Numbered from the stretch's first letter, positions 4,371 through 62,943 are shown. The stretch is DNA of 64,000 nt from Candidatus Omnitrophota bacterium (GCA_028715345.1 JAQUSB010000002.1:675-64674), one strand, 5' to 3'. The notes: generated from the letters alone by a model not told the origin. Translations and numbers: made by a program.

Positions 4371-5084
4371 ATGGCTATACGGATAAGGGAACAGAATAAC
4401 ATACATATACTTGATATAGACGGCCGCATCGATATAAATTCTTCCGAGCTTATCGAGATGGTTGGATGGCTTGTAAATTCCGGCAAGGTAAACCTCATAT
4501 TCAATTTCGAAAATGTCGACATGATCGATTATAACGGGCTTTCGATACTTGCCATAGCATATAAAAACATAGTGAACCATAAAGGCAAGCTGAAACTGCT
4601 TAATGTGCCGATCTCGGTAATAGAGATGATCAAAGTGGTAAAGCTCGACTCTATTTTCGAGCTATACACGGACGAAGAGACCGCGGTCAACAGCTTTGCC
4701 GAAAGCGAAGTCCAGAAACTGCACTTAAGGCGCAAATTCCCCAGACTTGATATCCACCTGAACGTAGAATACAAGCTTATCAGCGACAACAAGAGCCCTA
4801 AGACATTCAGCGGCAACGTCCTTAATATAAGCGCCGCAGGCCTCTATATTTACACTAAAAATACACTCCCGATAGGCACATTGCTGGACCTGCACTTCAC
4901 CATACCCGACTCAAGCGCAGCGCTTGAAGCTACCGGCCGCGTATCGTGGATCGCCGACAAAGACCTGCAGCCTCACGCCTACCCGGGCATGGGCGTATCC
5001 TTTTCTCATCTCACTCCCGAAAAAGAACTCGCGATAGTCGATTTTATCGATAAAAATGTAAGCCACAGGGCCGACCAATCGTAA
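4371..5084 (+). CDS. STAS (anti-sigma-factor antagonist-like) domain fused to C-terminal PilZ domain
   Basis: N-terminal 110 aa SpoIIAA/STAS-like (NNIHILDIDGRIDINSSELIEMV...LNVPISVIEMIKVVKLDSIF); C-terminal RRKFPRLD (RxxxR) and NISAAG (DxSxxG-like) PilZ motifs. Confidence 0.55.
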   Translation: MAIRIREQNNIHILDIDGRIDINSSELIEMVGWLVNSGKVNLIFNFENVDMIDYNGLSILAIAYKNIVNHKGKLKLLNVPISVIEMIKVVKLDSIFELYTDEETAVNSFAESEVQKLHLRRKFPRLDIHLNVEYKLISDNKSPKTFSGNVLNISAAGLYIYTKNTLPIGTLLDLHFTIPDSSAALEATGRVSWIADKDLQPHAYPGMGVSFSHLTPEKELAIVDFIDKNVSHRADQS

Positions 5085-6026: not shown

Positions 6027-6740
6027 ATGGCGGCAAGCCGAAAGAAGACGATCTCTCACGCAGACCAATTCGAAGCCCTCTCGAAGGTCAGTAAGACCAT
6101 AACGTCAAATCTATATCTCGAGGACATCCTTAAGCTTATAGTGACCGTCACGGCGGAGATAATGGATTCGAAGATATGTTCCATAATGCTTCTCGACGAT
6201 AAGACCAAAGAATTGGTCTTAAAAGCAACGCAGTCGATGAGCGAAGTGTACAATAAGAAGCCGCCGCTTAAGCTGGGTGAGGGCATAGCAGGTAAGGTCG
6301 CCATTGAAAATAAGCCTAGGGCTATATTCGACCTTTCGAAAGAACCGGAATACAAATACAAAGACATCGCCGTCAAAGAAGGTTTGAAGTCGCTTTTGTC
6401 CGTGCCTCTGGCCGTGAGGGGAAAAGTGATCGGCGTATTGAATAACTACACTTCGCACCCCCACAAATTCACCAAAGACGAGATAAACATCCTTAATACC
6501 GTCGCCAGCCAGGCCGCCATCGTCATCGACAACGCGGAGCTTATGGTAAAAACGAAGGTGGTCCAGGAGGAGCTCGAGACGCGCAAGCTCGTCGAGCGAG
6601 CTAAAGGCATCCTCATGCGCGAGCAGGGGCTGGGCGAAGATGAGGCTTTCCGAAAGATACAGAGACAAAGCATGGATATGCGAAAATCGATGCGCGAGAT
6701 AGCGGAAGCGATAATACTCATAGAGAACATGAAAAAATAA
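6027..6740 (+). CDS. GAF domain + ANTAR domain RNA-binding antitermination regulator (paralog 1)
   Basis: 237 aa; N-terminal GAF-like fold; C-terminal ELETRKLVERAKGILMREQGLGEDEAFRKIQRQSMDMRKSMREIAEAII is a canonical ANTAR helix pair; ~60% identical to ORF 60379..61074. Confidence 0.75.
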   Translation: MAASRKKTISHADQFEALSKVSKTITSNLYLEDILKLIVTVTAEIMDSKICSIMLLDDKTKELVLKATQSMSEVYNKKPPLKLGEGIAGKVAIENKPRAIFDLSKEPEYKYKDIAVKEGLKSLLSVPLAVRGKVIGVLNNYTSHPHKFTKDEINILNTVASQAAIVIDNAELMVKTKVVQEELETRKLVERAKGILMREQGLGEDEAFRKIQRQSMDMRKSMREIAEAIILIENMKK

Positions 6741-6742
6741 TT

Positions 6743-6769
6743 TGACAAAATACGCGGAAGTGATATACT
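6743..6769 (+). promoter_or_regulatory. sigma70-like promoter upstream of nadE
   Basis: TTGACA, 15-16 nt spacer, TATACT. Confidence 0.4.
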
Positions 6770-6856
6770 TACTATGTTAATGATGACATTTGAGGACTCC
6801 GGCGTCCGAATCCTAAGAAAGGATGAGGGCGCTTTTCTGTTTTCAGGATAAATTTT

Positions 6857-8533
6857 ATGAAGAAAAATATGAAGATAGCCATAGCTCAGGTAAATTGCAC
6901 GGTCGGCGATCTCGACGGCAACTCCGCGAAGATAATCGAATATATACAGAAGGCCAAAGCCTTAGGAGCAGATATGGTCTCGTTCCCCGAGCTTGCCGTA
7001 ACCGGCTATCCTCCGGAAGACCTTCTTTTAAAAGACGCATTTATCGCGGATAACCTGGAAGCGTTGAAACGCATAGCGAAGTCCGTGAATGACATAGTGG
7101 CGATAGTGGGATTCGTAGATAAAAAAGAGGGTAGCCTTTATAACGCCGCGGCTATTATATATAAAGCAGAGGTAAAGGGCATCTGCTATAAAGAGCTCCT
7201 GCCGAATTACGGTGTGTTCGATGAGCACCGCTATTTTAAACCCGGCAAAGATTCTCTTGTGTTCAGGCTCGGCGATCTCGTATTCGGCGTGAACGTCTGC
7301 GAAGATATCTGGCATACCGAGGGGCCGCTCTGTTCACAGGCCGCGCTCGGCGCCAAGCTCATCATAAACATAAATTCTTCGCCGTACCACGCGGGAAAAG
7401 TAAAAGAGCGCGAGGATATAGTGAGGCGCCAGGCAAAAGAGAATAACGTAGTGGTGAGCTACGCGAACCTCGTCGGAGGACAGGACGAACTCGTCTTCGA
7501 CGGGCAGAGCATGGTCGTGGACAATACCGGTAAAGTCCTGGTGAGGGCGGAGGCGTTCAAAGAAGACCTCGTCGCGATCGACATAGACATACCGGACGAT
7601 AAAGGCGCTCCTTCTAAAAACGTCATAGTGGTAGCTGACGCATATACACCGAAGAACAAGGCCGCCGCGCCTAAAAAAGACGCAAAGACGCTGGACCCGG
7701 CAGCTGAAATATACGAGGCGCTCCTTCTCGGTTTGAGGGATTACGCCTTCAAGAACGGCTTCAAAAAAGCGGCCATAGGGATGTCGGGCGGCATAGATTC
7801 GGCGCTTGTCGCGGCGCTTGCCAAAGATGCCTTGGGGGGAGAGAACGTTATCGGTATCTATATGCCGACCAGGTATTCGTCGGCGCAATCGGGTATAGAC
7901 GCTAAATCGGTTTCAGACAACCTCGGAATAAAATTTACTACGATCTCTATAGACCATATATATAAACTTTACCTGATGTCTCTGGAACCGCAGTTTGCCG
8001 GAGCCCCTAAAGATATAACGGAAGAGAATATACAGGCCAGGATACGCGGCAACGTCCTGATGGCATTATCGAATAAATTCGGCTACCTGGTATTAACTAC
8101 CGGGAATAAGTCCGAAATGAGCACAGGTTACGCTACATTATACGGCGATATGGCCGGCGGGTTCGCCGTGATAAAGGACGTGCCAAAGACGCTCGTCTAT
8201 AAACTTGCCTCATACCGGAATTCAGTGAGCAGGGTCATCCCGGGATCGGTTATCGCTAAAGCGCCTACGGCGGAATTGCGGCCTAACCAGCTCGATCAGG
8301 ACAACTTGCCCCCATACGACGTCCTCGACAAGATACTGAAAGAATACATAGAGGAAGACAGAGGCTACGATGAAATAGTGGCAATGGGATTCGACAAAGA
8401 CGTTGTGACCAAAGTGATGAATATGGTCGATAGAAGCGAGTACAAGAGGAGACAGTCGCCTCCGGGCATTAAGATAACGCCCAAGGCTTTCGGCAGAGAC
8501 AGGAGGATGCCGATAACGAACAAATACAAATAA
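6857..8533 (+). CDS. nadE: glutamine-dependent NAD+ synthetase
   Basis: 558 aa; N-terminal nitrilase/CN-hydrolase domain + C-terminal NAD synthetase with GMSGGIDSA PP-loop. Confidence 0.9.
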   Translation: MKKNMKIAIAQVNCTVGDLDGNSAKIIEYIQKAKALGADMVSFPELAVTGYPPEDLLLKDAFIADNLEALKRIAKSVNDIVAIVGFVDKKEGSLYNAAAIIYKAEVKGICYKELLPNYGVFDEHRYFKPGKDSLVFRLGDLVFGVNVCEDIWHTEGPLCSQAALGAKLIININSSPYHAGKVKEREDIVRRQAKENNVVVSYANLVGGQDELVFDGQSMVVDNTGKVLVRAEAFKEDLVAIDIDIPDDKGAPSKNVIVVADAYTPKNKAAAPKKDAKTLDPAAEIYEALLLGLRDYAFKNGFKKAAIGMSGGIDSALVAALAKDALGGENVIGIYMPTRYSSAQSGIDAKSVSDNLGIKFTTISIDHIYKLYLMSLEPQFAGAPKDITEENIQARIRGNVLMALSNKFGYLVLTTGNKSEMSTGYATLYGDMAGGFAVIKDVPKTLVYKLASYRNSVSRVIPGSVIAKAPTAELRPNQLDQDNLPPYDVLDKILKEYIEEDRGYDEIVAMGFDKDVVTKVMNMVDRSEYKRRQSPPGIKITPKAFGRDRRMPITNKYK

Positions 8534-8577
8534 GATAGTTGTTTCGGCGATGAGATAACGATAAGCAGGACGAGGAC

Positions 8578-8616
8578 GCCCTTTTTGCGCCATGACGCGC
8601 GAGAAGGGCTTTTTTT
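8578..8616 (+). terminator. intrinsic terminator after nadE
   Basis: 13-bp GC-rich stem (GCCCTTTTTGCGC / GCGCGAGAAGGGC, with G-U pairs) + hexaloop, followed by TTTTTTT. Confidence 0.6.
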
Positions 8617-9890: not shown

Positions 9891-9945
9891 GTAAGTAAAG
9901 GTGCAAGGCGGTTAAAGACCGGCAACAAAAAGAAAGGAGAAGGTT

Positions 9946-11181
9946 ATGATAAACTCAGGTGACACAGCTTGGATCCTGATGTCGACGGCGCTCGTTATGC
10001 TGATGACGGCGCCGGGGCTCGCCTTTTTTTACGGCGGCCTGGTGCGGCGCAAAAATGTCCTCGCCACGATGATGCAGTCGTTCTTCGTTTTATGCTTGAT
10101 CAGCATTCAGTGGATATTGTGGGGGTACAGCCTGTCGTTCGGCCCAGACCAGGGCCATTTCATAGGCAGTCTGGCGTGGTTTGGATTAAAAGGGGTCGGG
10201 ATGGCGCCAAACCCGGATTATTCCTCGACGATACCGCATCTTCTGTTCATGGCATACCAGATGATGTTTGCCGTCATTACGCCGGGGCTCATAACAGGCG
10301 CTTTCGCCGAAAGGATGAAATTTTCGGCATATGTGCTCTTTACCTTATTATGGGCGACACTGGTCTATGATCCCGTCTGTCACTGGGTCTGGGGAGCGGG
10401 CGGGTGGTTGCGGAACATGGGCGCCCTGGATTTTGCCGGCGGGACTGTCGTTCACGTCTCTTCGGGTATATCGGCGCTCGTCTGCGCTTTAGTGCTTGGA
10501 CGCAGGAGAGGCTATGGACGCGACCCGATGCCGCCGCACAACCTGCCGCTGACCATCCTCGGCGCTTCCTTATTGTGGTTCGGGTGGTTCGGTTTCAACG
10601 CAGGTTCGGCGCTCGGCTCTACAGAGCTGGCGGTCTGGGCATTCATTGCCACGAATACGGCCGCGGCGGCCGCGGGCCTTACGTGGATGTTCATAGAGTG
10701 GAAGGCTACCGGCAAACCTACGATACTCGGAGGCGCTACCGGAGCAGTGGCAGGGCTCGTCGCGATAACTCCCGGGGCAGGGTTTGTATCACCGATGTCA
10801 GCGATACTCATAGGAGCGATCGTGGCGTTCGTTTGCTATGCGGCAGTCGCTGTGATAAAACTTAAGCTGGCCTATGACGATTCTCTCGATGCGTTCGGGG
10901 TGCACGGGGTAGGCGGAACGCTCGGGGCACTGCTTGTAGGGCTATTTGCCCAGAAACTCATCAACCCCGCGGGAAATAACGGCTTGTTATTCGGCAATGC
11001 TGCCCAACTCGGAGTACAGGCGATAGGCGTAGCCGCTACCATAGTATATTCCGTGGTCGTTACTTTCATACTGCTGAAAGCGGTTGATGCCATAGTAGGA
11101 TTGAGGGTGCCTGACGAAGAGGAAGTGGTCGGGCTCGATATTACCCAGCACGAAGAGAGCGCGTACACGCTGCTGGATTAA
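9946..11181 (+). CDS. amtB: ammonium transporter
   Basis: 411 aa; DTAWILMSTALVMLMTAPGLAFFYGGLVRRKNVL Amt signature, 11 TM pattern. Confidence 0.9.
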   Translation: MINSGDTAWILMSTALVMLMTAPGLAFFYGGLVRRKNVLATMMQSFFVLCLISIQWILWGYSLSFGPDQGHFIGSLAWFGLKGVGMAPNPDYSSTIPHLLFMAYQMMFAVITPGLITGAFAERMKFSAYVLFTLLWATLVYDPVCHWVWGAGGWLRNMGALDFAGGTVVHVSSGISALVCALVLGRRRGYGRDPMPPHNLPLTILGASLLWFGWFGFNAGSALGSTELAVWAFIATNTAAAAAGLTWMFIEWKATGKPTILGGATGAVAGLVAITPGAGFVSPMSAILIGAIVAFVCYAAVAVIKLKLAYDDSLDAFGVHGVGGTLGALLVGLFAQKLINPAGNNGLLFGNAAQLGVQAIGVAATIVYSVVVTFILLKAVDAIVGLRVPDEEEVVGLDITQHEESAYTLLD

Positions 11182-11191
11182 GGAGGAAAAG

Positions 11192-11533
11192 ATGAAACTG
11201 ATAATCGCTATAATCCAGCCTCATAAGCTTGAGGATGTGCTCCACAGGCTCGACAGCGTCGAGATACACCTGCGGACCGTAAGCAACGTCCTCGGCTGCG
11301 GGAGGCAAAAAGGCAGGACCGAAATATACCGCGGGAGAAAAGAGGCGGGCAGCCTTCTGAAGAAGGTCAGGCTCGAGATCGCGGTGAACGAGCCGTTCGT
11401 GAGGCCTGCCCTGGACGCCATAACGCTCGGCGCGCGTTCAGGCACCATCGGGGACGGGAAGATATTCATACTTCCTATGGAAGGATGCGTCAGGATAAGG
11501 ACTGGAGAGGAGGGCGAGGTCGCTATAGGTTAA
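11192..11533 (+). CDS. glnK: nitrogen regulatory protein P-II (Tyr51 replaced by Glu)
   Basis: 113 aa; GCGRQKG T-loop base and SGTIGDGKIF B-loop; immediately downstream of amtB; T-loop reads YRGRKEAG so no uridylylatable Tyr51. Confidence 0.85.
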   Translation: MKLIIAIIQPHKLEDVLHRLDSVEIHLRTVSNVLGCGRQKGRTEIYRGRKEAGSLLKKVRLEIAVNEPFVRPALDAITLGARSGTIGDGKIFILPMEGCVRIRTGEEGEVAIG

Positions 11534-11546
11534 ACGTCATTTTTAC

Positions 11547-11575
11547 TTGCATTCGCGAAGGGAAGGTGGTATACT
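11547..11575 (+). promoter_or_regulatory. sigma70-like promoter for glnN leader
   Basis: TTGCAT-17 nt-TATACT; predicted start ~11582 coincides with first leader hairpin. Confidence 0.4.
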
Positions 11576-11581
11576 TAAATT

Positions 11582-11661
11582 GCACGTGGAAGTGCTTTTA
11601 TTTAAAGTAAAAATGAACAGAGACGTTCGTATTACAAAAATATGAATGTTTCTGTTTTTTT
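11582..11661 (+). promoter_or_regulatory. glnN 5' leader: dual small hairpins with hexaloops overlapping an intrinsic terminator (ANTAR-target-like antitermination element)
   Basis: hairpin GCAC-GUGGAA-GUGC (11582..11595); hairpin GAAC-AGAGAC-GUUC (11615..11628, loop A1/G4); 13-bp terminator stem 11616..11628 / 11644..11656 + U-run to 11661 uses the same nucleotides as hairpin 2. Confidence 0.5.
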
Positions 11662-11722
11662 ATTGGCTTTCGTGGTAATATATATCGGAACAATATAGCT
11701 TTTAAAATCAGGAGGAAATTCG

Positions 11723-13693
11723 ATGAACGTTCGGCAAAAAGCCCTATTCAGCATTAAAAGCATAGAGCCCCAAAAAGACAGGCTTGCGAAAAAGGTTTCG
11801 TCATATTTCGGTGAAAACACATTCAGCCTGTCGGCTATGCAGAAACATATTTCCAAAGGCACATTCGAAGCCTTCAAACGCTGGATGAGCGAGGGCGCCA
11901 TCATAACGCTCGATCAGGCAAATGAGATAGCGGCCGCTATGAAAGAGTGGGCGATATCCAAGGGCGCCACGTATTATACTCACTGGTTTCAGCCAATGAC
12001 GGGCCTGACCGCCGAAAAGCATGACAGCTTCATCTCCGTGACCGGGCAGGGCAAGGTCATCGAAAAATTCTCGGGCAATAAGCTGATCCAGGGCGAGCCC
12101 GACGCGTCGAGTTTCCCGTCGGGAGGCATAAGAGCGACTTTCGAGGCGAGAGGCTATACCGCATGGGACCCATCGAGCCCGGCTTTCATCATAGAGTCGA
12201 GGCTCGGCAAGACGCTTTGTATACCGACGATATTCATTTCCTATCACGGCGCGGCGCTTGATAAAAAACTGCCGCTTTTGCGCTCCGACGAAGTTCTGAA
12301 CAAATCGGCCGTAGCGTTATTGAAGCTTTTCGGCCATAAAGATGTTAAGAAGGTCGTGTCCACCTGCGGGCCGGAACAGGAATATTTCCTGATCGATAAA
12401 AATTATTATAACCTGCGCCAGGACCTTTTAATGACCGGCAGGACGCTGGTGGGAGCGGCTTCTCCTAAAGGGCAGCAGTTGGAAGACCAGTATTTCGGGA
12501 CGATAAAGGAACGCGTCCTTAATTATATGTTCGAGGTCGCGGAAGAGGCTTATAAGCTCGGCATACCCATAATGACGAGGCATAACGAAGTCGCGCCGCA
12601 CCAGTATGAATTTGCTCCTATGTTCGAAGAATCGAATATAGCCGCAGACCACAATCAGCTCCTCATGGAATTGATGAAAAAAGTGGCGCTCAGGCATAGC
12701 CTTGTCTGCCTTTTACACGAGAAACCTTTTGCCGGGATAAACGGGAGCGGCAAGCATGTGAATTGGTCGCTAGCGGATGACAAAGGGAACAACCTGTTGA
12801 ACCCCGGCGATACGCCTGAGGATAACCTGCAGTTCCTGGCAGTCCTGGCAGCTGTATTGAGGGCGGTATATCTGCATTCCGACCTCTTGAGAGCTAGCGT
12901 TGCCATGGCCGGCAATGAGCATAGACTGGGCGCGAATGAGGCGCCGCCCGCCATAATAAGCGTATTCCTGGGAAACCAGCTGACAAAAATACTGGACATG
13001 CTCGAAAAAGGAGTTAAGAAATCTGTATCTAAAAAAGACATAATGGATTTCGGTATAGCGCGCCTGCCCAGGTTCAATAAAGACTCCACCGACAGGAACA
13101 GGACATCGCCTTTCGCGTTCACGGGAACTAAATTCGAATTCAGGGCCGTCGGCTCGTCGCAGAATATATCGACCCCCATAACGGTCATAAATACTATCGT
13201 TGCCGAGTCGCTCGATCATGTAGCCGATAAGATAAAAAAGGCTTCGGACGGTAAGGATTTTAACACCGCCGTCCTGAAAGTGGTGGCGGAGATAGTAAAA
13301 GAGACGAAGGATATCCGCTTCGAGGGCAATAATTACTCTCCGGAATGGGTAAAAGAAGCGAAGAAGAGGGGGCTACCCAACGTCGCGTCGACGGCAGAAG
13401 CGTTAAAGGCCCTTACAAAAGAGAAGAACGTAAGCCTTTTCGCGAAATACAAAGTCTTTTCCAAAGAAGAGATGGTCGCCAGGTACCACATCTGGGTGCA
13501 TACTTATAACACGATACTCGAGATCGAAGGGAACACGCTCAATGAGATGGTCAATGCGAGCATCATTCCTGCCGGGTTCGAATACGAAAAATTACTGGCG
13601 GACAATTTAAGCGACCTGGCGAGCCTCAAGAAGTCTTCCGCTCTAAAGGTAGATAAATCGGCGTTTGAAGACCTGAAAGCGCACCTGGCGTAA
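11723..13693 (+). CDS. glnN: glutamine synthetase type III (GlnN), first 656 codons, ends at an in-frame TAA
   Basis: N-terminal MNVRQKALFSIKSIEPQ...FGENTFSLSAMQKHISKGTFEAFKRW typical of GS-III; size and domain order match ~729-aa GS-III when joined to next segment. Confidence 0.85.
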   Translation: MNVRQKALFSIKSIEPQKDRLAKKVSSYFGENTFSLSAMQKHISKGTFEAFKRWMSEGAIITLDQANEIAAAMKEWAISKGATYYTHWFQPMTGLTAEKHDSFISVTGQGKVIEKFSGNKLIQGEPDASSFPSGGIRATFEARGYTAWDPSSPAFIIESRLGKTLCIPTIFISYHGAALDKKLPLLRSDEVLNKSAVALLKLFGHKDVKKVVSTCGPEQEYFLIDKNYYNLRQDLLMTGRTLVGAASPKGQQLEDQYFGTIKERVLNYMFEVAEEAYKLGIPIMTRHNEVAPHQYEFAPMFEESNIAADHNQLLMELMKKVALRHSLVCLLHEKPFAGINGSGKHVNWSLADDKGNNLLNPGDTPEDNLQFLAVLAAVLRAVYLHSDLLRASVAMAGNEHRLGANEAPPAIISVFLGNQLTKILDMLEKGVKKSVSKKDIMDFGIARLPRFNKDSTDRNRTSPFAFTGTKFEFRAVGSSQNISTPITVINTIVAESLDHVADKIKKASDGKDFNTAVLKVVAEIVKETKDIRFEGNNYSPEWVKEAKKRGLPNVASTAEALKALTKEKNVSLFAKYKVFSKEEMVARYHIWVHTYNTILEIEGNTLNEMVNASIIPAGFEYEKLLADNLSDLASLKKSSALKVDKSAFEDLKAHLA

Positions 13694-13915
13694 GTGGTCG
13701 CAAAAATATATTACGTGCGCCGCAACGCCAAAGAGATGATGGATCTTCTCGAGAAGGCGCAGAAGAAACACCACGAGGAACGCGCCGCCATATATTTCAG
13801 CCGGCTGAAGCCGCTTATGGAACACATCCGTAAGCACGCCGACCAGTTGGAATGCGTGGTTTCGGATGAACATTGGGACCTTCCCAAATACAGGGAGATG
13901 TTGTTCGTTAAATAA
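13694..13915 (+). CDS. glnN: GlnN C-terminal 73 codons, same frame as 11723..13693, directly after internal TAA
   Basis: Starts at the codon after the TAA (13691..13693) in the identical frame; open for 73 codons; ends ...WDLPKYREMLFVK resembling GS-III C-terminus; 656+73 = 729 aa. Confidence 0.6.
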   Translation: MVAKIYYVRRNAKEMMDLLEKAQKKHHEERAAIYFSRLKPLMEHIRKHADQLECVVSDEHWDLPKYREMLFVK

Positions 13916-13935
13916 CAGCGGTAAGTATTTTAGCG

Positions 13936-13955
13936 CCTGCACTACGTAGTGCAGG
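13936..13955. promoter_or_regulatory. 20-bp perfect palindrome CCTGCACTACGTAGTGCAGG (TGCAC/GTGCA half sites)
   Basis: exact reverse-complement symmetry; between glnN and gltB. Confidence 0.4.
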
Positions 13956-13975
13956 ATAACCGGAAGACTGGACAT

Positions 13976-14024
13976 AGGCGTTCAGATTGGTCATAAGACG
14001 ACCGATTTGAATGCCTATTTTTTT
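13976..14024 (+). terminator. intrinsic terminator with apical GGUC-AUAAGAC-GACC mini-hairpin, 20 nt upstream of gltB start
   Basis: 13-bp stem AGGCGUUCAGAUU / GAUUUGAAUGCCU (three G-U) + U7 run; apex hairpin loop ends GAC like the hexaloops in other leaders. Confidence 0.55.
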
Positions 14025-14044
14025 ATTCAGACAGGTGACTTTTT

Positions 14045-17000
14045 ATGAGACATACAGCGATACCGAAAGCACAGGGTTTATACGATCCGCAATTCGAACA
14101 CGATTCATGCGGCGTCGGGTTCGTCTGTAATATTGACGGGAACCCGTCCAATGAGATCGTGCTGCAGGGGCTCCGGGTCCTTGACAGGCTCTCTCACCGC
14201 GGCGCTACGGGCGCAGACCCAAAGACGGGCGACGGCGCGGGCGTTCTTATACAGATCCCTCACGATTTTTTCAAGAAAGTGTGCGCGGCTAAAGGTATAG
14301 AGTTGCCCGGCAAAGGCGAGTACGGGACAGGGCTATTCTTTCTTCCGGTCGACGTGAAAGAAAGAGAATTCTGCAAAAATACGGTAAAGAAGATCGTAGA
14401 GAGCGAGGGGCAAACGTTATTGGGATGGCGTAGTGTTCCCGTCGACAATTCCGATATAGGAGTGACCGCCCGCCAGACAGAGCCGGTGATCGAGCAGCCC
14501 TTTATCAAGAGAGCCCCCGGAATGAAAGGCGAGCTTGAATTTGAACGGAAATTATTCCTGATACGCAAGCGCATAGAAAATACGGTCCGCTCATCCCGTT
14601 TAAAACAGGGGTCGTCTTTTTACATAACCAATCTGTCGGGCCGCACATTCTCCTACAAGGGGCTTCTCATGCCGCACCAGGTCGGCAGTTTTTTCCCCGA
14701 CCTGAAGGATAAGGATATGAAGAGCGCGTTGTGCCTGGTGCATTCCCGGTATAGCACGAATACTTTCCCTACGTGGGACAGGGCTCAGCCTTTCAGGTTT
14801 CTCGCCCACAACGGCGAGATAAACACCCTGCGCGGCAATATAAACTGGCTCAAAGCGCGCGAAAGCTTATTGGCGAGCAAATTGTTCGGTAAGGACATCA
14901 GGAAATTATACCCTGTCATAGTGCCGGGCGGGAGCGATTCGGCTTCGTTGGACAACCTATTCGAACTGCTCGTCCTGTCGGGGCGATCCATGCCGCACGC
15001 TATGATGATGCTGATACCCGCTGCATGGGAACAGGACCATTCCATGAGCGACAAGCTCAAAAATTTTTACAAATATCATTCATGCCTGACAGAACCGTGG
15101 GACGGCCCCGCCGCCATAGCTTTTACGGACGGCGCCAGGATCGGCGCATGCTTAGACAGGAACGGCCTGAGGCCCGCGCGCTACATAGTCACAAAAAGCG
15201 GGTTCGTCGTAATGTCGTCGGAGGTGGGCGTGCTCGACATACCGCCGGCAGAGATACTGAAGTCCGGCAGGGTTGAGCCGGGCAAGATATTCTTCATAGA
15301 CACGGTGCAGGGCAAAATAATAGATGACCGCGAACTTAAGGATAAGATGGCATCGCGTTCACCTTACGGCGCATGGACAAAAAATAACATAGTCGAACTG
15401 GATTCGCTGCCGAGATCCAAAAAGACGGTAAAGAAAGCCAAGGGCACGGATACTTTACTTAAAGCGTTCGGATATACGAGAGAGGACCTTAAAGTCATAA
15501 TAAAACCGATGGCTGAAAAAGGCGCCGAGCCCGTCGGCTCTATGGGTAACGACACGCCGCACGCAGTGCTTTCCCTGAAGCCTCAGCTCCTTTACTCGTA
15601 TTTCAAACAGCTATTTGCGCAGGTCACGAATCCCGCGATAGACCCGATAAGGGAAGAGCTTGTAATGAGCCTGGAAAGTTATATAGGCCCGGAGAAGAAC
15701 CTTCTCGACGAGACGGCGGACCATTGCCATAGGCTTCACGTAAAAAGACCCGTCCTCACCAACGAAGAGCTTTCGAAGATACGCGATATCAAATTCAACG
15801 GCTTCAGGACAAAGACCATATCGACCTTATTTAACGCGGAAGACGAAAAAGATTTTATCGACACGATCGACCATATTTGCGCCGAAGCTTCCGGGGCTAT
15901 CAAAAAAGGTTACAAGTTCATCATATTGAGCGATAAAGGTCTCAATAAGAAGAAAGCCGCCCTGCCGGCTCTTTTGGCTGTGGGAGCCGTCCACCAGCAT
16001 CTCGTCAAAAGATCCTTGCGCACGCAGATAGGCATAGTGGTGGAAAGCGCGGAGCCCAGGGAGGTGCACCATTTCGCGCTCCTGTTCGGTTACGGAGCCG
16101 ATTGCGTCAATCCATACCTTGCTTACGAAGCGGCAGGTAAACTTATAGAGGACGGCGACCTTGACATGGATCCCGGGAAAGCGAGGCACAATTATATAAA
16201 GGCCGTCAATAAAGGGATACTTAAAATATTGTCGAAAATGGGCATATCGACGCTGCAGAGCTACAGGGGCGCCCAGATATTCGAAGCGCTCGGGCTCAAT
16301 GACAAAGTGGTGGAAAAATGTTTTACCGGCACTGCCTCAAGGATCGGAGGTATAGGCTTCGACCATATATATAAAGAATGCCTTTTACGCCACCGCGATG
16401 CATATTACGGGCTCGGAGAGCCGTATCTTGCCACGGGCGGGCTGTATCAGTGGAAGAAAGACGGGGAATTTCATTTATGGAACCCGGAGACAATAGCTGC
16501 TCTCCAGGACGCCACGCGCCTTAACGACCCCAAAAAGTACAGGGAGTTCGCCGATCTCATAAACGATCAATCTAAAAATCCGTGCACTTTGCGCAGCATG
16601 CTGAAATTCAAGACCGTGACTCCTGTGCCTTTAAGCGAGGTCGAGCCCGCCGGATCCATTTTCAAGCGCCTCGTCACAGGAGCTATGAGCTTCGGTTCGA
16701 TAAGCAGGTCGACGCACGAAACGCTCGCCCTGGCGATGAACAAGCTGGGCGGCAGGTCAAATACCGGAGAAGGCGGGGAAGACCCGGCAAGGTTTGCGCC
16801 GTTGCCTAACGGAGATTCGGCCAGAAGCGCCATAAAACAGGTTGCGTCGGGGAGGTTCGGAGTGACGACCAACTATTTAGTGAACGCCGATGAATTACAG
16901 ATAAAGATCGCACAGGGCGCTAAGCCGGGCGAGGGAGGGCAATTGCCGGGGCACAAAGTCAGCCCCATAATCGCCAGGACGCGATACACGACGCCCGGCG

Positions 17001-18568
17001 TGACGTTGATATCTCCGCCGCCGCATCACGATATATATTCGATCGAGGACCTGGCGCAGCTTATTTTTGACTTAAAGAACGTGAACCCTAAAGCGCGCAT
17101 CAGCGTCAAGCTCGTATCGGAGATCGGCGTCGGCACTATAGCGGCCGGCGTAGCGAAGGGACATGCGGATATGATCCTGATATCCGGAGGTGACGGCGGG
17201 ACGGGCGCGTCGCCTATGAGTTCGATCAAGCACGCGGGCCTGCCGTGGGAGCTGGGGCTGTCCGAGGCCCACCAAACGCTCGTCTTAAACGACCTGCGCA
17301 GCCGTGTGCGTCTGCAGACGGACGGGCAGATGCGCACAGGCAGGGACGTCGCGATAGCGGCGCTTTTAGGGGCTGAGGAATTCGGTTTCTGCACGGCGGC
17401 GCTTGTAGTGTCGGGATGCGTGATGCTCCGCCACTGCAACCTCAATAATTGTTCGGTCGGCATCGCCACTCAGAACGAGATACTCGAAAAGAGGTTCCGG
17501 GGGAGACCGGAATACCTTATAAATTATTTCAATTTCGTCGCCGAGGAGCTGCGCGGGATAATGGCTTCTTTAGGCTTAAGGTCTATCGATGAGATGGTCG
17601 GGAGGACCGATCTTTTGGAACCGAACGCATTTATCTCGTCGGGGAAAGCGGACAAATTAGACCTTTCGCGAATATTATACAAACCGGTGATGCCGGAGGG
17701 CGTCGGTACTCATTGCACCAAAAAACAGGACCACGGCATAGACAAAATACTCGACATCAAGCTTATCGATCTTGCCGATAACGCGATAAAGAACAGCGAG
17801 CAGATAAATATAGAGCTCGGCATAAAGAACACCGATAGGACCGCGGGGGCTATGTTGAGCGGCGCCATATGCCGCCTTCACGGCGAAGAGGGGCTGCCTC
17901 AGGACACGGTAAATTTCAAGTTTAAGGGAATGGCCGGCCAGTCCTTCGGCGCGTTCCTGGTGAAAGGCGTGAAGTTCGAACTCGAGGGAATGGCAAACGA
18001 TTATGTCGGCAAAGGCATATCGGGCGGAACGATAATAATATATCCCGACAAGTCCAGCCTGTATGCGCCCGAGGAGAATGTGATCATAGGAAATACCGCG
18101 TTCTACGGGGCGATAAGCGGCCAGGCGTATATAAGAGGCGTGGCCGGAGAGAGATTCTGCATACGCAATTCCGGATTGTTGGCGGTGGTGGAAGGTACAG
18201 GCGATCATGGCTGTGAATATATGACCGGGGGCAGAGTGGTGGTGCTCGGTAAAACCGGCAGGAACTTCGCTGCCGGCATGTCAGGGGGGATAGCATATAT
18301 ATACGACCCTGAAAAAGAATTTGACGGAAGGTACAATAAAGAAATGGTCCGGGCGGAGAAAGTCACGGCTGAGGATGAGGCGACGATCAACGACCTTCTC
18401 CTGAACCACTCGAGATATACGCAAAGCCCTATCGCGAAAAAGATACTTGCCAATTTCAGGAGCAGTATGAAAAAATTCGTGAAGGTCATGCCGATAGAAT
18501 ATAAACGCATACTCGAGAACGCCGCGATAACGGCAAAAAAAGATTCGACAGAGGTGTCAGATGGGTGA
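14045..18568 (+). CDS. gltB: glutamate synthase large subunit
   Basis: 1507 aa; N-terminal Cys1-type amidotransferase (CGVGFV), FMN/Fe-S central domain and C-terminal GXGXG beta-helix domain. Confidence 0.9.
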   Translation: MRHTAIPKAQGLYDPQFEHDSCGVGFVCNIDGNPSNEIVLQGLRVLDRLSHRGATGADPKTGDGAGVLIQIPHDFFKKVCAAKGIELPGKGEYGTGLFFLPVDVKEREFCKNTVKKIVESEGQTLLGWRSVPVDNSDIGVTARQTEPVIEQPFIKRAPGMKGELEFERKLFLIRKRIENTVRSSRLKQGSSFYITNLSGRTFSYKGLLMPHQVGSFFPDLKDKDMKSALCLVHSRYSTNTFPTWDRAQPFRFLAHNGEINTLRGNINWLKARESLLASKLFGKDIRKLYPVIVPGGSDSASLDNLFELLVLSGRSMPHAMMMLIPAAWEQDHSMSDKLKNFYKYHSCLTEPWDGPAAIAFTDGARIGACLDRNGLRPARYIVTKSGFVVMSSEVGVLDIPPAEILKSGRVEPGKIFFIDTVQGKIIDDRELKDKMASRSPYGAWTKNNIVELDSLPRSKKTVKKAKGTDTLLKAFGYTREDLKVIIKPMAEKGAEPVGSMGNDTPHAVLSLKPQLLYSYFKQLFAQVTNPAIDPIREELVMSLESYIGPEKNLLDETADHCHRLHVKRPVLTNEELSKIRDIKFNGFRTKTISTLFNAEDEKDFIDTIDHICAEASGAIKKGYKFIILSDKGLNKKKAALPALLAVGAVHQHLVKRSLRTQIGIVVESAEPREVHHFALLFGYGADCVNPYLAYEAAGKLIEDGDLDMDPGKARHNYIKAVNKGILKILSKMGISTLQSYRGAQIFEALGLNDKVVEKCFTGTASRIGGIGFDHIYKECLLRHRDAYYGLGEPYLATGGLYQWKKDGEFHLWNPETIAALQDATRLNDPKKYREFADLINDQSKNPCTLRSMLKFKTVTPVPLSEVEPAGSIFKRLVTGAMSFGSISRSTHETLALAMNKLGGRSNTGEGGEDPARFAPLPNGDSARSAIKQVASGRFGVTTNYLVNADELQIKIAQGAKPGEGGQLPGHKVSPIIARTRYTTPGVTLISPPPHHDIYSIEDLAQLIFDLKNVNPKARISVKLVSEIGVGTIAAGVAKGHADMILISGGDGGTGASPMSSIKHAGLPWELGLSEAHQTLVLNDLRSRVRLQTDGQMRTGRDVAIAALLGAEEFGFCTAALVVSGCVMLRHCNLNNCSVGIATQNEILEKRFRGRPEYLINYFNFVAEELRGIMASLGLRSIDEMVGRTDLLEPNAFISSGKADKLDLSRILYKPVMPEGVGTHCTKKQDHGIDKILDIKLIDLADNAIKNSEQINIELGIKNTDRTAGAMLSGAICRLHGEEGLPQDTVNFKFKGMAGQSFGAFLVKGVKFELEGMANDYVGKGISGGTIIIYPDKSSLYAPEENVIIGNTAFYGAISGQAYIRGVAGERFCIRNSGLLAVVEGTGDHGCEYMTGGRVVVLGKTGRNFAAGMSGGIAYIYDPEKEFDGRYNKEMVRAEKVTAEDEATINDLLLNHSRYTQSPIAKKILANFRSSMKKFVKVMPIEYKRILENAAITAKKDSTEVSDG

Positions 18569-20006
18569 TACGCACGGTTTTCTTAAAATACGGCGAAAAA
18601 CGTCGTCCTACAGGCCGGTTTGCGAAAGGGTCAAGGACTACGATGAGGTCGTGCAGTTGCGTTCCGATGAAAGTTCCGAGGAGCAGGGCGCGCGATGCAT
18701 GGATTGCGGCACACCTTTTTGTCATTGGGGATGCCCTATCGGCAATTACATCCCGGAATGGAACGACCTGATATTCCGCGGGCAGTGGAAACAGGCCATG
18801 GATATCCTGGGCGGGACAAATAACCTTCCCGAGATAACAGGACGCATATGCCCGGCGCTATGCGAATACGCCTGCGTCCTCGGTATAAACGACGATCCTG
18901 TCACCGTCCGTGAGAATGAGCTGGCGATAGTCGAGCATGCCTTTAAGAACGGGTTCATAAAGGCCAGGCCTCCGAGGAAACGGACAGGAAAGAAGGTGGC
19001 TGTGATCGGATCAGGGCCGTCGGGCCTGGCAACAGCGGATCAGTTGAACAAAGCAGGGCATGCGGCAACGGTATTCGAGCGCGATGACAAGATAGGCGGA
19101 ATATTAAGGTATGGCATACCGGATTTTAAACTGGATAAAGGTATTTTGGACAGGCGTATAAAGATATGGAAAAAAGAAGGCATAAAATTCGTTACAAAAG
19201 TAAGTGTCGGCGCAGACCTTAAAGCTTCCAGCCTGAAGAAAGAATTTGACGCTATATGTCTGGCAGGCGGGAGCAGGACGCCGCGCGATATAAAGATAGA
19301 GGGGAGAGAACTTTCAGGCATCCATTTCGCGATGGATTATCTCACCCAGTCGAATAAACGCGCCTCCGGAGAAAAGATACCCGAAGACAGGCTCATCGAC
19401 GCAAAAGGCAAGAAAGTCGTCATCATAGGCGGCGGAGACACCGGGGCCGATTGCGTGGGAACGGCGAACAGACAGGGCGCAAGCTGCGTAGCCCAGATAG
19501 AGGTTATGCCGAAGCCGGCCGAATGCAGGCCGGATAACCAGCCCTGGCCTAAATACCCGCTTATCCTAAAGACCTCGACCAGCCATGAAGAAGGAAGCCA
19601 GCGCCATTGGTCGATCCTTACAAAGAAATTCGCAGGACAGGGTGGACGCATCGCCAAAATATCGTGTGCGCGCGTGGATTTCTCCCAAAAAGACGATAAA
19701 GGATGCCCGGTAATGAAAGAGATCCCGGGAAGCGCATTCGAGATAGAAGCCGACCTCGTGATACTCGCCGTAGGCTTCCTGCATCCCGAACACTCAAGTC
19801 TACTTAAGGATTTAGACGTAGAGCTGGACGTGAGGGGCAACATAAAGACAGGCGCCGATCATGCCACGTCCGTAAAGAACGTGTTCGCCGCAGGAGATAT
19901 GAGAAGAGGCCAATCTCTCGTAGTCTGGGCTATATCCGAAGGCCGGAGCGCCGCGCACTATATAGACAAACACCTGATGGGGGCTACCTCGCTGCCCAGG
20001 ATGTAG
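18561..20006 (+). CDS. gltD: glutamate synthase small (NADPH) subunit
   Basis: 481 aa; CMDCGTPFCHWGCPIGN Fe-S motif; two Rossmann GxGxxG (VAVIGSGPSG; VVIIGGGDTG); overlaps gltB by 8 nt. Confidence 0.9.
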   Translation: MGDTHGFLKIRRKTSSYRPVCERVKDYDEVVQLRSDESSEEQGARCMDCGTPFCHWGCPIGNYIPEWNDLIFRGQWKQAMDILGGTNNLPEITGRICPALCEYACVLGINDDPVTVRENELAIVEHAFKNGFIKARPPRKRTGKKVAVIGSGPSGLATADQLNKAGHAATVFERDDKIGGILRYGIPDFKLDKGILDRRIKIWKKEGIKFVTKVSVGADLKASSLKKEFDAICLAGGSRTPRDIKIEGRELSGIHFAMDYLTQSNKRASGEKIPEDRLIDAKGKKVVIIGGGDTGADCVGTANRQGASCVAQIEVMPKPAECRPDNQPWPKYPLILKTSTSHEEGSQRHWSILTKKFAGQGGRIAKISCARVDFSQKDDKGCPVMKEIPGSAFEIEADLVILAVGFLHPEHSSLLKDLDVELDVRGNIKTGADHATSVKNVFAAGDMRRGQSLVVWAISEGRSAAHYIDKHLMGATSLPRM

Positions 20007-20010
20007 TTGA

Positions 20011-20077
20011 CTGAATTAACTTGGCCGCTCGTAGAACTCGCGGCACTTAGCTAACCCATAGGCTGAATTAACTTGCT
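20011..20077 (+). repeat. REP/MITE-like intergenic repeat, copy A
   Basis: CTGAATTAACTTGGCCGCTCGTAGAACTCGCGGCACTTAGCTAACCCATAGGCTGAATTAACTTG; related to copies at 50801..50856 and 57268..57337 (reverse); internal 13-bp direct repeat CTGAATTAACTTG at both ends. Confidence 0.6.
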
Positions 20078-22145: not shown

Positions 22146-22217
22146 ATAATCTGACAGACAACGACGTCTTCCAAAAGACCTCCCTTGTTAGGATGGTGCA
22201 GGAGGTCTTCTTTTTTA
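22146..22217 (+). promoter_or_regulatory. hppA 5' leader: AGAC-AACGAC-GUCU hexaloop hairpin + intrinsic terminator
   Basis: hairpin 22156..22169 (loop A1/G4); alternative GUCUU/AAGAC pairing; terminator AAGACCUCC...GGAGGUCUU (22175..22209) + U6; 35 nt before hppA ATG. Confidence 0.5.
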
Positions 22218-49866: not shown

Positions 49867-50799
49867 ATGGATAATCGCGATCATACCGGCAGTGAAAAGC
49901 GCCATACCGCTATGGGCTTGTTTTTAACTCTCCTCGCAATAGTTTTCCTGACAGACATACTTACAAATATCATTACCGCTATATTCCATATTCCCATAAT
50001 ATTAGAATCCGTACTGGGCGGGTTTTTGGTAATTTCGATCGCATACCCGGCCCTCTATCTGCTTATTTTCAAACCCCTATCCGTAGAAATAGCCAGGCGA
50101 AAACGCGTCGAAAAGATGAAGGACGAATTCATCGGCACGGTTTCGCACGAATTAAGAACACCCTTGTCTATCACCAAAGAAGGCCTAAGCCTTGTCCTCG
50201 ACAAGATACCCGGGCCGTTGAACGAACAGCAGGCAAGAATTCTTACAGTATCAAAAAACAATATAAACCGGCTCTCCCGCATAATAAACGACCTGCTCGA
50301 TATTTCGAAGATAGATGCAGGAAAGAAGGTCGTCCGCCATGAAGCCTTCGACATAATACCTGTTATATGGCAGACGATGGCTCTTTTCCAGGCAAGGATC
50401 AGGGATAAAGGCCTGGCATTCAGGAGCGTTCTGCCAAAAGGCGCTATAGTAGTTCGCGGAGACGTTGATGCCATTATTCAGGTATTGACGAATCTTATAG
50501 GGAATGCTCTCAAATTTACCGAGCGCGGGTCCATAGATATATCGCTCAAGGATACCCCGGAAGAGATAGAATTATCGGTCCACGACACGGGGGTAGGCAT
50601 ATCAAAGGAAGACATGCCTAAGTTATTCGAGAAATTCCAGCAGTTCGGGCGCGTCAACGGGCCCGGGGAAAAAGGGACCGGCCTGGGGCTGGCTATAGCC
50701 AAAGGCATAATAACCGCCCACAACGGCAGGATATGGGCGGAAAGCGAATTCGGCAAAGGCACAAAAATTACTTTCGTCCTGCCTAAGAACAAAGAATAG
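49867..50799 (+). CDS. sensor histidine kinase (membrane, HisKA + HATPase_c)
   Basis: two N-terminal TM; H-box FIGTVSHELRTPL; N, G1 (DTGVGI), G2 (GTGLGLAI) boxes. Confidence 0.8.
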   Translation: MDNRDHTGSEKRHTAMGLFLTLLAIVFLTDILTNIITAIFHIPIILESVLGGFLVISIAYPALYLLIFKPLSVEIARRKRVEKMKDEFIGTVSHELRTPLSITKEGLSLVLDKIPGPLNEQQARILTVSKNNINRLSRIINDLLDISKIDAGKKVVRHEAFDIIPVIWQTMALFQARIRDKGLAFRSVLPKGAIVVRGDVDAIIQVLTNLIGNALKFTERGSIDISLKDTPEEIELSVHDTGVGISKEDMPKLFEKFQQFGRVNGPGEKGTGLGLAIAKGIITAHNGRIWAESEFGKGTKITFVLPKNKE

Positions 50800-50800
50800 C

Positions 50801-50856
50801 AAGGCCTCGGTCGGAGACCTCGGCACTTAGCCAACACTATGGCTGAATAAACTTGG
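50801..50856 (+). repeat. REP/MITE-like intergenic repeat, copy B (between kinase and response regulator)
   Basis: AAGGCCTCGGTCGGAGACCTCGGCACTTAGCCAACACTATGGCTGAATAAACTTGG; shares the CGGCACTTAGCnAACnCnATGGCTGAAT(T/A)AACTTG core with 20011..20077. Confidence 0.6.
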
Positions 50857-50866
50857 GAGAATATAC

Positions 50867-56359: not shown

Positions 56360-56425
56360 TGACAGTACAATTTAAATTAATAGCGAAGACAAAGACGTCT
56401 GCCACTATAGTGGCGGCGTTTTTTT
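56360..56425 (+). promoter_or_regulatory. nfnA 5' leader: AGAC-AAAGAC-GUCU hexaloop hairpin abutting intrinsic terminator
   Basis: hairpin 56387..56400; terminator CUGCCAC-UAUA-GUGGCGG (56399..56418) + U7; terminator stem uses CU of the hairpin 3' arm. Confidence 0.5.
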
Positions 56426-57286: not shown

Positions 57287-57337
57287 TGTTGGCTAAATGC
57301 CGAGATCTCCGATCGAGGCCAAGTTGTTAATTAAACC
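57268..57337 (-). repeat. REP/MITE-like intergenic repeat, copy C (inverted), overlapping last 6 codons of nfnA
   Basis: reverse complement TTTAATTAACAACTTGGCCTCGATCGGAGATCTCGGCATTTAGCCAACACTATGGCTGAATTAACTTAC aligns with copies A/B. Confidence 0.6.
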
Positions 57338-57340
57338 ATC

Positions 57341-60143
<2,803 letters not shown>

Positions 60144-60230
60144 TACCATTGACAGACTGATGGGACCATGCTAAAATAAGTAAAATTTGGATATAAAAGC
60201 ACAATGTATGTGCTTTTGCGAAGAAGGGAC

Positions 60231-60268
60231 GAAGGCGTTCTCGAAAAGGGAACGCCTTCTTCTTTTTT
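60231..60268 (+). terminator. intrinsic terminator after gdhA
   Basis: GAAGGCGTTC / GAACGCCTTC 10-bp stem, 10-nt loop, TTCTTTTTT. Confidence 0.6.
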
Positions 60269-60378
60269 ACCTTCTTTATTAAGATAAGTTAAATTATCCG
60301 AAACAAAGGTGTTTCATATGCCGATGACAGGCACTATGGGGCATCTTTTCTATTTTTTAATCAGATATCGAGGTAAAT

Positions 60379-61074: not shown

Positions 61075-61148
61075 ATGGACGCGTACAGGAAAGAGGCGGA
61101 AAAGATACTGGACGGTAAAAAGTAGTCCAAAAGAAATAGGGAGGGGTT

Positions 61149-62943
<1,795 letters not shown>

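Follow-up and report, generated by a model that had tools for sequence, protein, structure and literature searches.

A probable ANTAR-type attenuator in the glnN leader of a Candidatus Omnitrophota bacterium

Introduction

What controls the passage of RNA polymerase into glnN, the type III glutamine synthetase gene of a Candidatus Omnitrophota bacterium? The question is raised by its leader, which lies in the 64,000-nucleotide stretch of DNA analysed here (GCA_028715345.1 JAQUSB010000002.1:675-64674; hereafter the window, with positions counted from its first letter) and carries two small hairpins, the second of them buried in an intrinsic terminator. A first-pass annotation, made from the sequence alone, had read this leader as an ANTAR-type antitermination switch and had extended the reading to the leaders of hppA and nfnA. 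Substrates of ANTAR proteins are two small hairpins whose hexaloops have A first and G fourth (A1/G4) and whose closing pairs are sequence-specific, the second hairpin (P2) overlapping a terminator; for the eutP pairs A27-U36 and C28-G35 this specificity has been demonstrated (PMC3369931). We compared the window with loci of related genomes, designated by L-numbers (L001, L002 and so on), and consider it highly probable that the glnN leader attenuates transcription in a protein-dependent way, as ANTAR targets do. GAF-ANTAR proteins would be its binders, and binding would lead to readthrough.

Results

P2 and the terminator of the glnN leader are mutually exclusive

The glnN leader contains the following elements:

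11547-11552 and 11570-11575, plus strand: distal glnN promoter, TTGCAT-17-TATACT, with the same layout in L001 and L014
11582-11595, plus strand: hairpin P1, GCAC-GUGGAA-GUGC, 4 bp, hexaloop with G at loop positions 1 and 4
11615-11628, plus strand: hairpin P2, GAAC-AGAGAC-GUUC, A1/G4 loop, antiterminator, extendable to 11607-11635
11615-11664, plus strand: intrinsic terminator, 19 bp (11615-11633/11639-11657), loop ACAAA, U-run, -21.6 kcal/mol
11673-11681, plus strand: probable proximal glnN promoter, extended -10 TG-G-TAATAT, 3' of the terminator, function predicted

The promoter and both hairpins described by the first-pass annotation can be read from the sequence exactly where it placed them. 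Its terminator is present as well, with P2 in the 5' arm; the true stem is 19 bp long, and the 13 bp reported earlier (11616-11628/11644-11656) are a subset of it. The minimum free energy (MFE) structure of 11582-11665 computed with RNAfold consists of P1 and the 19-bp terminator (-30.7 kcal/mol, z = -7.2 against shuffled sequences), and an independent terminator scan returns the same 19-pair hairpin with a T-run after 11657. Without the terminator 3' arm, the RNA folds into P1 and the extended P2 (11607-11635) at -12.4 kcal/mol. As P2 lies wholly within the terminator 5' arm, the two structures are mutually exclusive, and the folds of the full and the 3'-arm-less leader bear out what had been claimed on this point.

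The -10 element of the distal promoter ends 6 nt upstream of P1, so that the transcript probably starts at P1, and a -10-like element ends 5-9 nt upstream of P1 in all five P1-bearing glnN leaders. The distal promoter matches the consensus at 8 of 12 positions, with only three of six in the -35, and is absent from the promoter scan output. A sigma-54 promoter was considered for the TTGCAT element and rejected by inspection, as there is no GG-N10-GC arrangement.

The same region holds a second feature. The sequence TTTTTACTTGCAT at 11542-11554, which contains the '-35' of the first-pass annotation, is the 3' half of a clade-specific bipartite DNA motif that in relatives reads in full [AG]GTTACCA[AG]A, about 11 nt, TTT(T)TACTTGTA[TA], with a constant spacing of 19 nt from GTTACC to TTGTAT. 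There are about 22 copies, on the plus strand only and 5-40 nt from P1, upstream of nearly every P1-type hairpin in relatives (observed in L004, L006, L007, L009, L011, L013, L014, L015 and L022); the window has the 3' half only. The motif departs from the consensus of both sigma-70 and sigma-54; it may act as a nitrogen-specific promoter or operator.

The tandem-hairpin element is conserved among relatives

We built a covariance model, R1, from 16 tandem-hairpin sites, all in Omnitrophota relatives and none from the window, and searched the 64 kb with filters off. R1 finds the leaders of glnN (42.1 bits, E=2e-9), gltB (31.5 bits, E=1.2e-6) and the second of two GAF-ANTAR genes, GAF-ANTAR2 (25.7 bits, E=4e-5); no other site over the 64 kb is significant, the next match having E=0.65. 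The motif search proposed by the first-pass annotation thus recovers glnN and two leaders besides, and misses hppA and nfnA: this dual-hairpin model detects neither. The gltB, nadE and GAF-ANTAR2 leaders, none of which had been listed, match better than hppA and nfnA.

The glnN leaders of L001, L006, L014 and L022 share the order GCAC-NNNGNA-GUGC, A/U-rich linker, GAAC-ANNG[AG]C-GUUC and a sequence-divergent terminator, and P2 in relatives reads G[AG]AC-ANNGRC-GUUC. The element also stands before amt, gltB and porin genes there, and a nitrogen cluster can have as many as five copies. We aligned 23 sites from the window and relatives; in this alignment, which was fitted to the model and is therefore biased towards structure, 98.9% of cells are paired, and compensatory changes occur in three of the four P1 pairs. 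The closing pairs A-U and C-G are invariant or nearly so in both hairpins. The loops are hexanucleotides, and G4 is invariant in all sites examined; loop position 1 in the 16 sites from relatives is A in 15 P2 copies and in 11 P1 copies, the other five P1 copies having G. The 'GAC end' once thought to be shared by the loops is not general, the clade consensus being A-N-N-G-R-C.

A terminator of -13 to -37 kcal/mol with a U tail that begins within P2 was computed for 22 of the 23 sites, and at the remaining one, in L011, the script chose a downstream terminator, inspection by eye showing an overlapping one as well. In their distal parts the terminators are mutually unrelated in sequence, and what is conserved is the architecture. 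Loss of the overlap in relatives had been named at the outset as the result that would tell against a switch; we find the opposite, in orthologous and paralogous leaders alike.

Single A1/G4 hexaloop hairpins of 4 bp are common (69 on the plus strand of the window). The window has 24 hexaloop hairpins closed by AC/GU pairs, where shuffled sequences have 9.9 +/- 3.3, and those on the plus strand lie mostly in leaders; the ones at 1561, 8392, 40769 and 47843 are inside coding sequence and were dismissed as chance.

Could something other than an ANTAR protein recognize P1 and P2? At gathering threshold, Rfam gives no match in the whole window, and an E-value scan of 11540-11725 gives sub-threshold matches only, mostly to miRNA-precursor families on the long hairpin. 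The lack of a matching family leaves room for a different RNA-binding protein or a small-molecule riboswitch, and yet a pair of 14-nt hairpins joined by linkers of varying length makes an implausible ligand pocket, the loops and closing pairs bear the ANTAR signature, and ANTAR genes adjoin the targets; we give this alternative very little credence.

Several observations weigh against an ANTAR switch in the glnN leader. The P2 stems are nearly invariant, so that covariation support comes mainly from P1, and the P1 loop in the window, GUGGAA, starts with G instead of A. P1 and P2 are separated by a linker of 19 nt in glnN, of 17 nt in gltB and of 8-25 nt in relatives; linkers in the Enterococcus faecalis eut leaders are 5-12 nt, and 3 or 14 nt impaired function (PMC3369931). 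As the published wider search let the linker vary, a short linker is a trait of EutV and does not define the family. A second covariance model, R2, built from 29 published ANTAR substrate sequences (Ramesh 2012 alignments), has no individually significant match in the window, the best reaching 12 bits at E ~0.6. Five of its seven top window matches are in flagged leaders at 10-12 bits, and two unrelated sites also pass 10 bits, the arbitrary cut-off of the published ANTAR search (PMC3369931). Finally, the promoter-like TGGTAAAAT at 11673-11681, 3' of the terminator, is conserved, and L002-type relatives keep the terminator and the TGGTAAAAT element without P1/P2, so that glnN can be expressed without the switch.

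These last points suggest a simpler account, in which 11615-11664 simply terminates the amt-glnB operon or transcripts from a spurious upstream promoter, the promoter at 11673-11681 drives glnN, and P1 and P2 have no regulatory role. Almost every glnN leader of the clade keeps TGGTA[AGT]AAT just past the terminator, with or without P1/P2, and this includes L002, L007, L009 and L011-L013, all of which lack the dual hairpin here; the L002 leader retains the homologous terminator and has lost P1 and the P2 5' strand; and the distal promoter is weak by consensus. Such an account leaves unexplained why the loop and closing-pair pattern is kept in 23 sites before several different genes, with terminator overlap in essentially all, and why a -10-like element precedes P1 by 5-9 nt in every P1-bearing glnN leader; moreover, the gltB leader has no room for a promoter past its terminator. 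We judge it unlikely. The two views can be reconciled if glnN is transcribed from two promoters: judging from its sequence, the extended -10 at 11673-11681 probably acts as a proximal promoter beyond the reach of the attenuator, and if it is real, the attenuator acts only on transcripts from the distal promoter or from further upstream.

We therefore read the glnN leader as an ANTAR target because its alternative structures are exclusive, R1 matches it, the pattern is conserved across 23 sites, the published determinants are present and GAF-ANTAR genes are neighbours. On the dual hairpin with its terminator the first-pass annotation is well supported, as the R1 match, the closing pairs, G4 and the terminator overlap agree.

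Outside the clade, weak R1 matches (E 0.1-0.5) lie just upstream of glnN in L043 (9868-9922), L080 (9810-9848) and L042 (154-218). These are Lachnospiraceae and other Bacillota loci, and the matches are possibly genuine ANTAR sites of the kind known in Firmicutes.

Dual-hairpin leaders precede gltB, nadE and a GAF-ANTAR gene

Three other leaders in the window carry the tandem arrangement:

13936-14025, plus strand: gltB leader, with P1 CCUGCAC-UACGUA-GUGCAGG at 13936-13955 and P2 GGAC-AUAGGC-GUUC at 13970-13983
13974-14018, plus strand: gltB leader terminator and U-run, -28 kcal/mol, overlapping P2 from loop nucleotide 1
6742-6843, plus strand: nadE-operon leader, with a TTGACA-16-TATACT promoter and a terminator (6801-6833) and U-run overlapping P2'
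6775-6788, plus strand: nadE P1', UGUU-AAUGAU-GACA
6794-6807, plus strand: nadE P2', GGAC-UCCGGC-GUCC, with U at loop position 1
60149-60358, plus strand: GAF-ANTAR2 leader, two tandem attenuators (R1 and folds)
60199-60263, plus strand: first GAF-ANTAR2 attenuator, with P1 GCAC-AAUGUAU-GUGC at 60199-60213, P2 GGAC-GAAGGC-GUUC at 60227-60240 and terminator at 60227-60263
60301-60348, plus strand: second GAF-ANTAR2 attenuator, with hairpin AAAC-AAAGGU-GUUU at 60301-60314 and terminator at 60305-60348

Tandem stem-loops of at least 3 bp each are thus present in the glnN, gltB, nadE and GAF-ANTAR2 leaders, and a P2-type hairpin overlaps the terminator in all of these, including both GAF-ANTAR2 modules, as well as in the nfnA leader; it does not in that of hppA. 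The gltB leader is a textbook copy of the glnN switch. The nadE leader is conserved in L001 and is divided into two single-hairpin attenuators in L006 and L014; P2' loops of the nadE type start with U or C. Both GAF-ANTAR2 modules are conserved in L161, and their tandem arrangement suggests autoregulation or dependence on the paralogue.

The extent of the gltB leader depends on where glnN ends. There is an in-frame TAA in glnN at 13691-13693; the codon in seven relatives is GAA, GAG or GAT (Glu/Asp). The frame is well conserved for 73 codons past this TAA, to another at 13913-13915; GlnN of relatives is about 730 aa long. Either the internal TAA is an artefact of sequencing or assembly, or it arose very recently by nonsense mutation, or GlnN is truncated. 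With the glnN frame running to 13913-13915, the true gltB leader is 13916-14044.

The short leaders invite a further question, whether the terminated RNAs act in trans. EutX and Rli55 are small RNAs reported to act as decoys that titrate ANTAR proteins. Near-consensus promoters (11-12 of 12 positions) drive short leaders with ANTAR-like hairpins in the window, and the GAF-ANTAR2 leader has two such modules, as might be expected if the released leaders were decoys of this kind, instead of or besides acting in cis. In the released RNA, however, the terminator (-21 to -28 kcal/mol) sequesters P2 and makes the dual-hairpin form unavailable, and every element has a gene immediately downstream on its own strand. 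A decoy role is, we think, very improbable.

One-hairpin leaders: nfnAB-gdhA and hppA

The hexaloop hairpins that the first-pass annotation saw in the hppA and nfnA leaders exist, one in each and without a dual motif:

56387-56425, plus strand: nfnAB-gdhA leader, with hairpin AGAC-AAAGAC-GUCU at 56387-56400 and terminator at ~56396-56418 with U-run
22156-22169, plus strand: single hppA hairpin, AGAC-AACGAC-GUCU
22175-22209, plus strand: hppA terminator, AAGACCUCC...GGAGGUCUU and U-run, separate from the hairpin (leader 22156-22216)

When the three leaders originally proposed are folded, P2 of glnN and the nfnA hairpin overlap their terminators, whereas the hppA hairpin coexists with its own.

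The nfnA hairpin follows a perfect TTGACA-16-TATAAT promoter, and in the fold its 3' strand is part of the terminator. Orthologous leaders keep an A1/G4 hexaloop hairpin under divergent terminators (AAAGAC in L161/L162, AAGGAC in L165, and L005), and the GGAC-AAAGGC-GUCC hairpin of L005 represents a compensatory stem change; to this extent the earlier extension to nfnA is supported. The nfnA leaders have no conserved P1, and that of L005 has no room for one. One-hairpin modules also precede a Glu_synthase gene in L164 and pyrG in L163, and form the second GAF-ANTAR2 attenuator. It is plausible that the nfnA leader is a one-hairpin variant of the switch. The genes nfnA, nfnB and gdhA (56459-60143) form one apparent operon, in the same order in L161 and L165, and a GAF-ANTAR gene follows in the window and in L161. 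The functional link, first described as general 'NADPH supply', is better and more simply read as NADPH-dependent ammonium assimilation by an nfnAB-gdhA operon.

Two observations concern the neighbours of these modules. In L164, nfnAB precedes a stand-alone gene with a Glu_synthase domain, which has a hairpin/terminator leader of its own. The pyrG open reading frame (ORF) of the window, as listed, starts with GTG at 61228, and since its CTP synthase domain extends only from residue 34, translation probably starts in fact at an ATG near 61321; the spacer 61075-61330 holds a 47-codon Cys-rich ORF (61149-61292) with a strong Shine-Dalgarno sequence, and in its place the L163 pyrG leader has an AAAC-AAAGGC-GUUU hairpin and a terminator.

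In the hppA leader the hairpin lies downstream of a perfect promoter, and the terminator begins 5 nt past it. Both are present together in the MFE fold, so this is not the same switch as that of glnN, contrary to the original proposal. Our HppA metagenome scan returned mainly distant homologues with unrelated leaders, L081-L083 being the only useful loci. A leader terminator is found in 10 of the 10 orthologous hppA leaders examined, and the A1/G4 hairpin in only about five; the leaders of L166, L167, L168, L081 and L171 have the terminator without it. Neither a second hairpin nor a conserved P1 was found in the hppA leader. The attenuator itself is real; its link to ANTAR is unproven.

We lean slightly towards hppA attenuation (22156-22216) under non-ANTAR control, the hairpin being a lineage-specific element with a different logic, or functionless. 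Besides the patchy distribution and the coexistence of the two structures, this would fit the failure of R1 to find the leader and a conserved core that the terminator loop has of its own, CCUCC-N6-7-(U)AGGAWGG. On the other side, the hairpin is kept in L001 (AGUGUC) and in L002 and L169/L170 (AAUGAU), and the AGAC/GUCU stem, A1 and G4 are invariant across these and the window (AACGAC) amid varying loop positions and flanks, a pattern in the aligned sequences that suggests selection. In addition, a variant hairpin in L083, AGAU-AAUGAU-GUCU, overlaps its terminator, the sole such case, and R2, with its published seed, scores the hppA site at 10.2 bits, among its top matches.

The terminator core has a 5' arm ...GACCUCC, a loop (Y)UYGKUAGGAWGG and a 3' arm GGAGGUC... 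in the window, L001, L002, L166, L167, L169 and L171. Instead of forming the terminator, CCUCC could pair with GGAWGG in the loop, and the stem has compensatory changes in L002. A leader peptide in the terminator region was rejected, as it is not conserved in L002, and an anti-antiterminator (GUCUU/AAGAC) was not adopted, being worth only -4.5 kcal/mol, where the terminator has about -14, and weak in L001.

Two GAF-ANTAR regulators and a model of the switch

Pfam confirms the two GAF-ANTAR regulators that had been noted in the window:

6027-6740, plus strand: GAF-ANTAR regulator 1, 237 aa, immediately 5' of the nadE leader and first of its cluster (Pfam ANTAR 3e-22, GAF_2 9e-21)
60379-61074, plus strand: GAF-ANTAR regulator 2, 231 aa, followed by pyrG (Pfam PF03861, 1e-19)

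The two are 63% identical, and GAF-ANTAR genes adjoin target leaders in the window, L005, L007, L011, L014 and L161. The solved structures nearest to the GAF domain of regulator 1 are the GAF of PtsP/EI-Ntr (3trc, E=1e-15) and NifA-like Nlh1. GAF domains of the PtsP/EI-Ntr and NifA-like kinds have been linked to glutamine or 2-oxoglutarate sensing. By analogy, the GAF domain would sense nitrogen status, with 2-oxoglutarate or glutamine only a lead as to the ligand.

We propose that transcription from the distal promoter would start at or beside P1. By default the 19-bp terminator (11615-11657) would form, and a leader RNA of about 80 nt would be released. An active GAF-ANTAR protein, presumably a dimer, would bind both hexaloops and the A-U/C-G closing pairs and keep P2 (11615-11628) closed; with P2 being the terminator 5' arm, the terminator would be blocked and RNA polymerase would read into glnN. 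The same device would operate before gltB, nadE-porin-amt-glnB and GAF-ANTAR2, and a one-hairpin version before nfnAB-gdhA. With a proximal glnN promoter, the switch would add regulated transcription above a basal level. Together, these leaders probably constitute a nitrogen-assimilation regulon with the two GAF-ANTAR proteins in charge.

Genomic setting

GlnN is 80-89% identical to proteins of Omnitrophota metagenome-assembled genomes (MAGs), and NfnA is identical to an Omnitrophica MAG protein in NCBI. The genes around the leaders, assigned with Pfam, are:

6857-8533, plus strand: nadE, glutamine-dependent NAD synthetase
between nadE and amt, plus strand: BBP2 porin gene
9946-11181, plus strand: amt
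11192-11533, plus strand: PII gene (glnB)
from 11723, plus strand: glnN, type III glutamine synthetase
14045-18568, plus strand: gltB
after gltB, plus strand: gltD-like gene, then an amino-acid permease gene
22252-24576, plus strand: hppA, with Mrp/complex-I-like genes next
56459-57286, plus strand: nfnA, far downstream of hppA, with nfnB next
58806-60143, plus strand: gdhA, glutamate dehydrogenase

The spacers before the porin gene (8534-8591) and amt (9891-9945) are only about 55 nt long in the window and have no dual-hairpin attenuators, in contrast to L001, L004, L006 and L014; in this genome the nadE leader therefore appears to be the only one that serves nadE-porin-amt-glnB, as a single operon.

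An intergenic repeat of about 60 nt occurs in three copies, at 20005-20075 (plus), 50797-50862 (plus) and 57283-57340 (minus), and includes GGCACTTAGCYAAC and ...GGCTGAATWAACTTGG. It occupies short spacers between co-oriented genes (gltD-permease, nfnA-nfnB, and before a response-regulator-like ORF near 50868), and two tandem copies lie in L163 at 4825-4930. The repeat folds no better than shuffled sequence.

Discussion

How does the glnN switch compare with known ANTAR systems? With the EutV targets eutP/G/S/A of Enterococcus faecalis it shares tandem short hexaloop hairpins, G4, A1 in P2 and in most P1 copies, A-U/C-G closing pairs, an A/U-rich linker, P2 over the terminator and several sites per gene cluster. 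The published P1 consensus is SYAC-AAHGRH-GUDB, as in eutS GCAC-AACGGC-GUGC (PMC3369931); the glnN P1 stem GCAC/GUGC is the eutS stem and fits SYAC/GUDB. The systems differ in the P2 stem, GAAC/GUUC in Omnitrophota against the published RRGC/GCYY, in linker length (8-25 nt against 5-12 nt), in the G1 of the window P1 loop, and in the regulator, which has a GAF sensor in Omnitrophota and a phosphorylated receiver domain in the EutV system. We conclude that the glnN switch is a clade-specific ANTAR dialect that has most of the defining features and is missed by sequence models trained on Firmicutes.

Other ANTAR systems act on nitrogen metabolism. NasR/nasF of Klebsiella oxytoca likewise works by antitermination in nitrogen assimilation, and the nasF P2, GGAU-AAAGGC-GUCC, resembles the nfnA-type GGAC-AAAGGC-GUCC of L005 and L164; NasR senses nitrate through a NIT domain, whereas the Omnitrophota regulators have a GAF domain. 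GnfR of Geobacter sulfurreducens, a REC-ANTAR protein, is proposed to relieve terminators in the leaders of nitrogen-metabolism genes; GnfR is a two-component response regulator from another phylum, in contrast to the one-component GAF-ANTAR proteins of Omnitrophota. ANTAR motifs have been described before genes for PII, ammonium transporters, glutamine synthetase (25 Table S2 entries) and glutamate synthase (11 mentions), as have multi-operon ANTAR nitrogen regulons (PMC3369931).

With such motifs in print since 2012, our core claim is not new in kind, and the 'undescribed' nitrogen-assimilation ANTAR regulon of the first-pass annotation belongs to a kind already reported (PMC3369931). The regulons of Desulfotomaculum acetoxidans, D. 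reducens and Pelobacter carbinolicus are like ours in their multiple sites, kinds of genes and computational basis (PMC3369931), and differ in phylum, in the likely regulators, here GAF-ANTAR paralogues, and in the additional candidates nadE, nfnAB-gdhA, pyrG (L163) and hppA. None of nadE, gdh (nfnAB-gdhA), pyrG and pyrophosphatase (hppA) is among the targets in Table S2 of Ramesh et al. 2012. The literature searched, Ramesh et al. 2012 included, holds no characterised GAF-ANTAR protein; a 2025 review lists GAF-ANTAR only as a domain architecture, and just one paper among those searched names such proteins. The GAF-ANTAR regulators, the phylum, the single-hairpin modules and the nadE and nfnAB-gdhA targets are what we regard as modestly new.

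A more ambitious picture can be drawn, tentatively and with more doubt than belief on our part: a one-component GAF-ANTAR network of Omnitrophota with two paralogues and two dialects, in which a single hexaloop would be enough, the regulon would be wider and GAF-ANTAR2 would depend on its paralogue. The dual dialect would be [GA]CAC-NNNGNN-GUG[CU] followed by GAAC-ANNGRC-GUUC, and the single dialect [AG]GAC-NNNGRC-GUC[UC], pyrimidine-first loops included; the regulon would extend to nadE, nfnAB-gdhA, pyrG and the hppA-led energy operon. The first-pass annotation had likewise included the pyrophosphatase (energy) operon, an extension that is not established.

The nitrogen leaders described here offer concrete candidate RNA targets for GAF-ANTAR proteins and a first view of post-initiation nitrogen control in the uncultivated phylum Omnitrophota. 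One-hairpin modules and pyrimidine-first loops, if functional, would broaden the accepted rules of ANTAR recognition, and broader rules would improve genome-wide searches, since a model built on the published seed misses these sites. The inclusion of nfnAB-gdhA in this control hints at how these anaerobes may co-express NADPH supply and ammonium assimilation.

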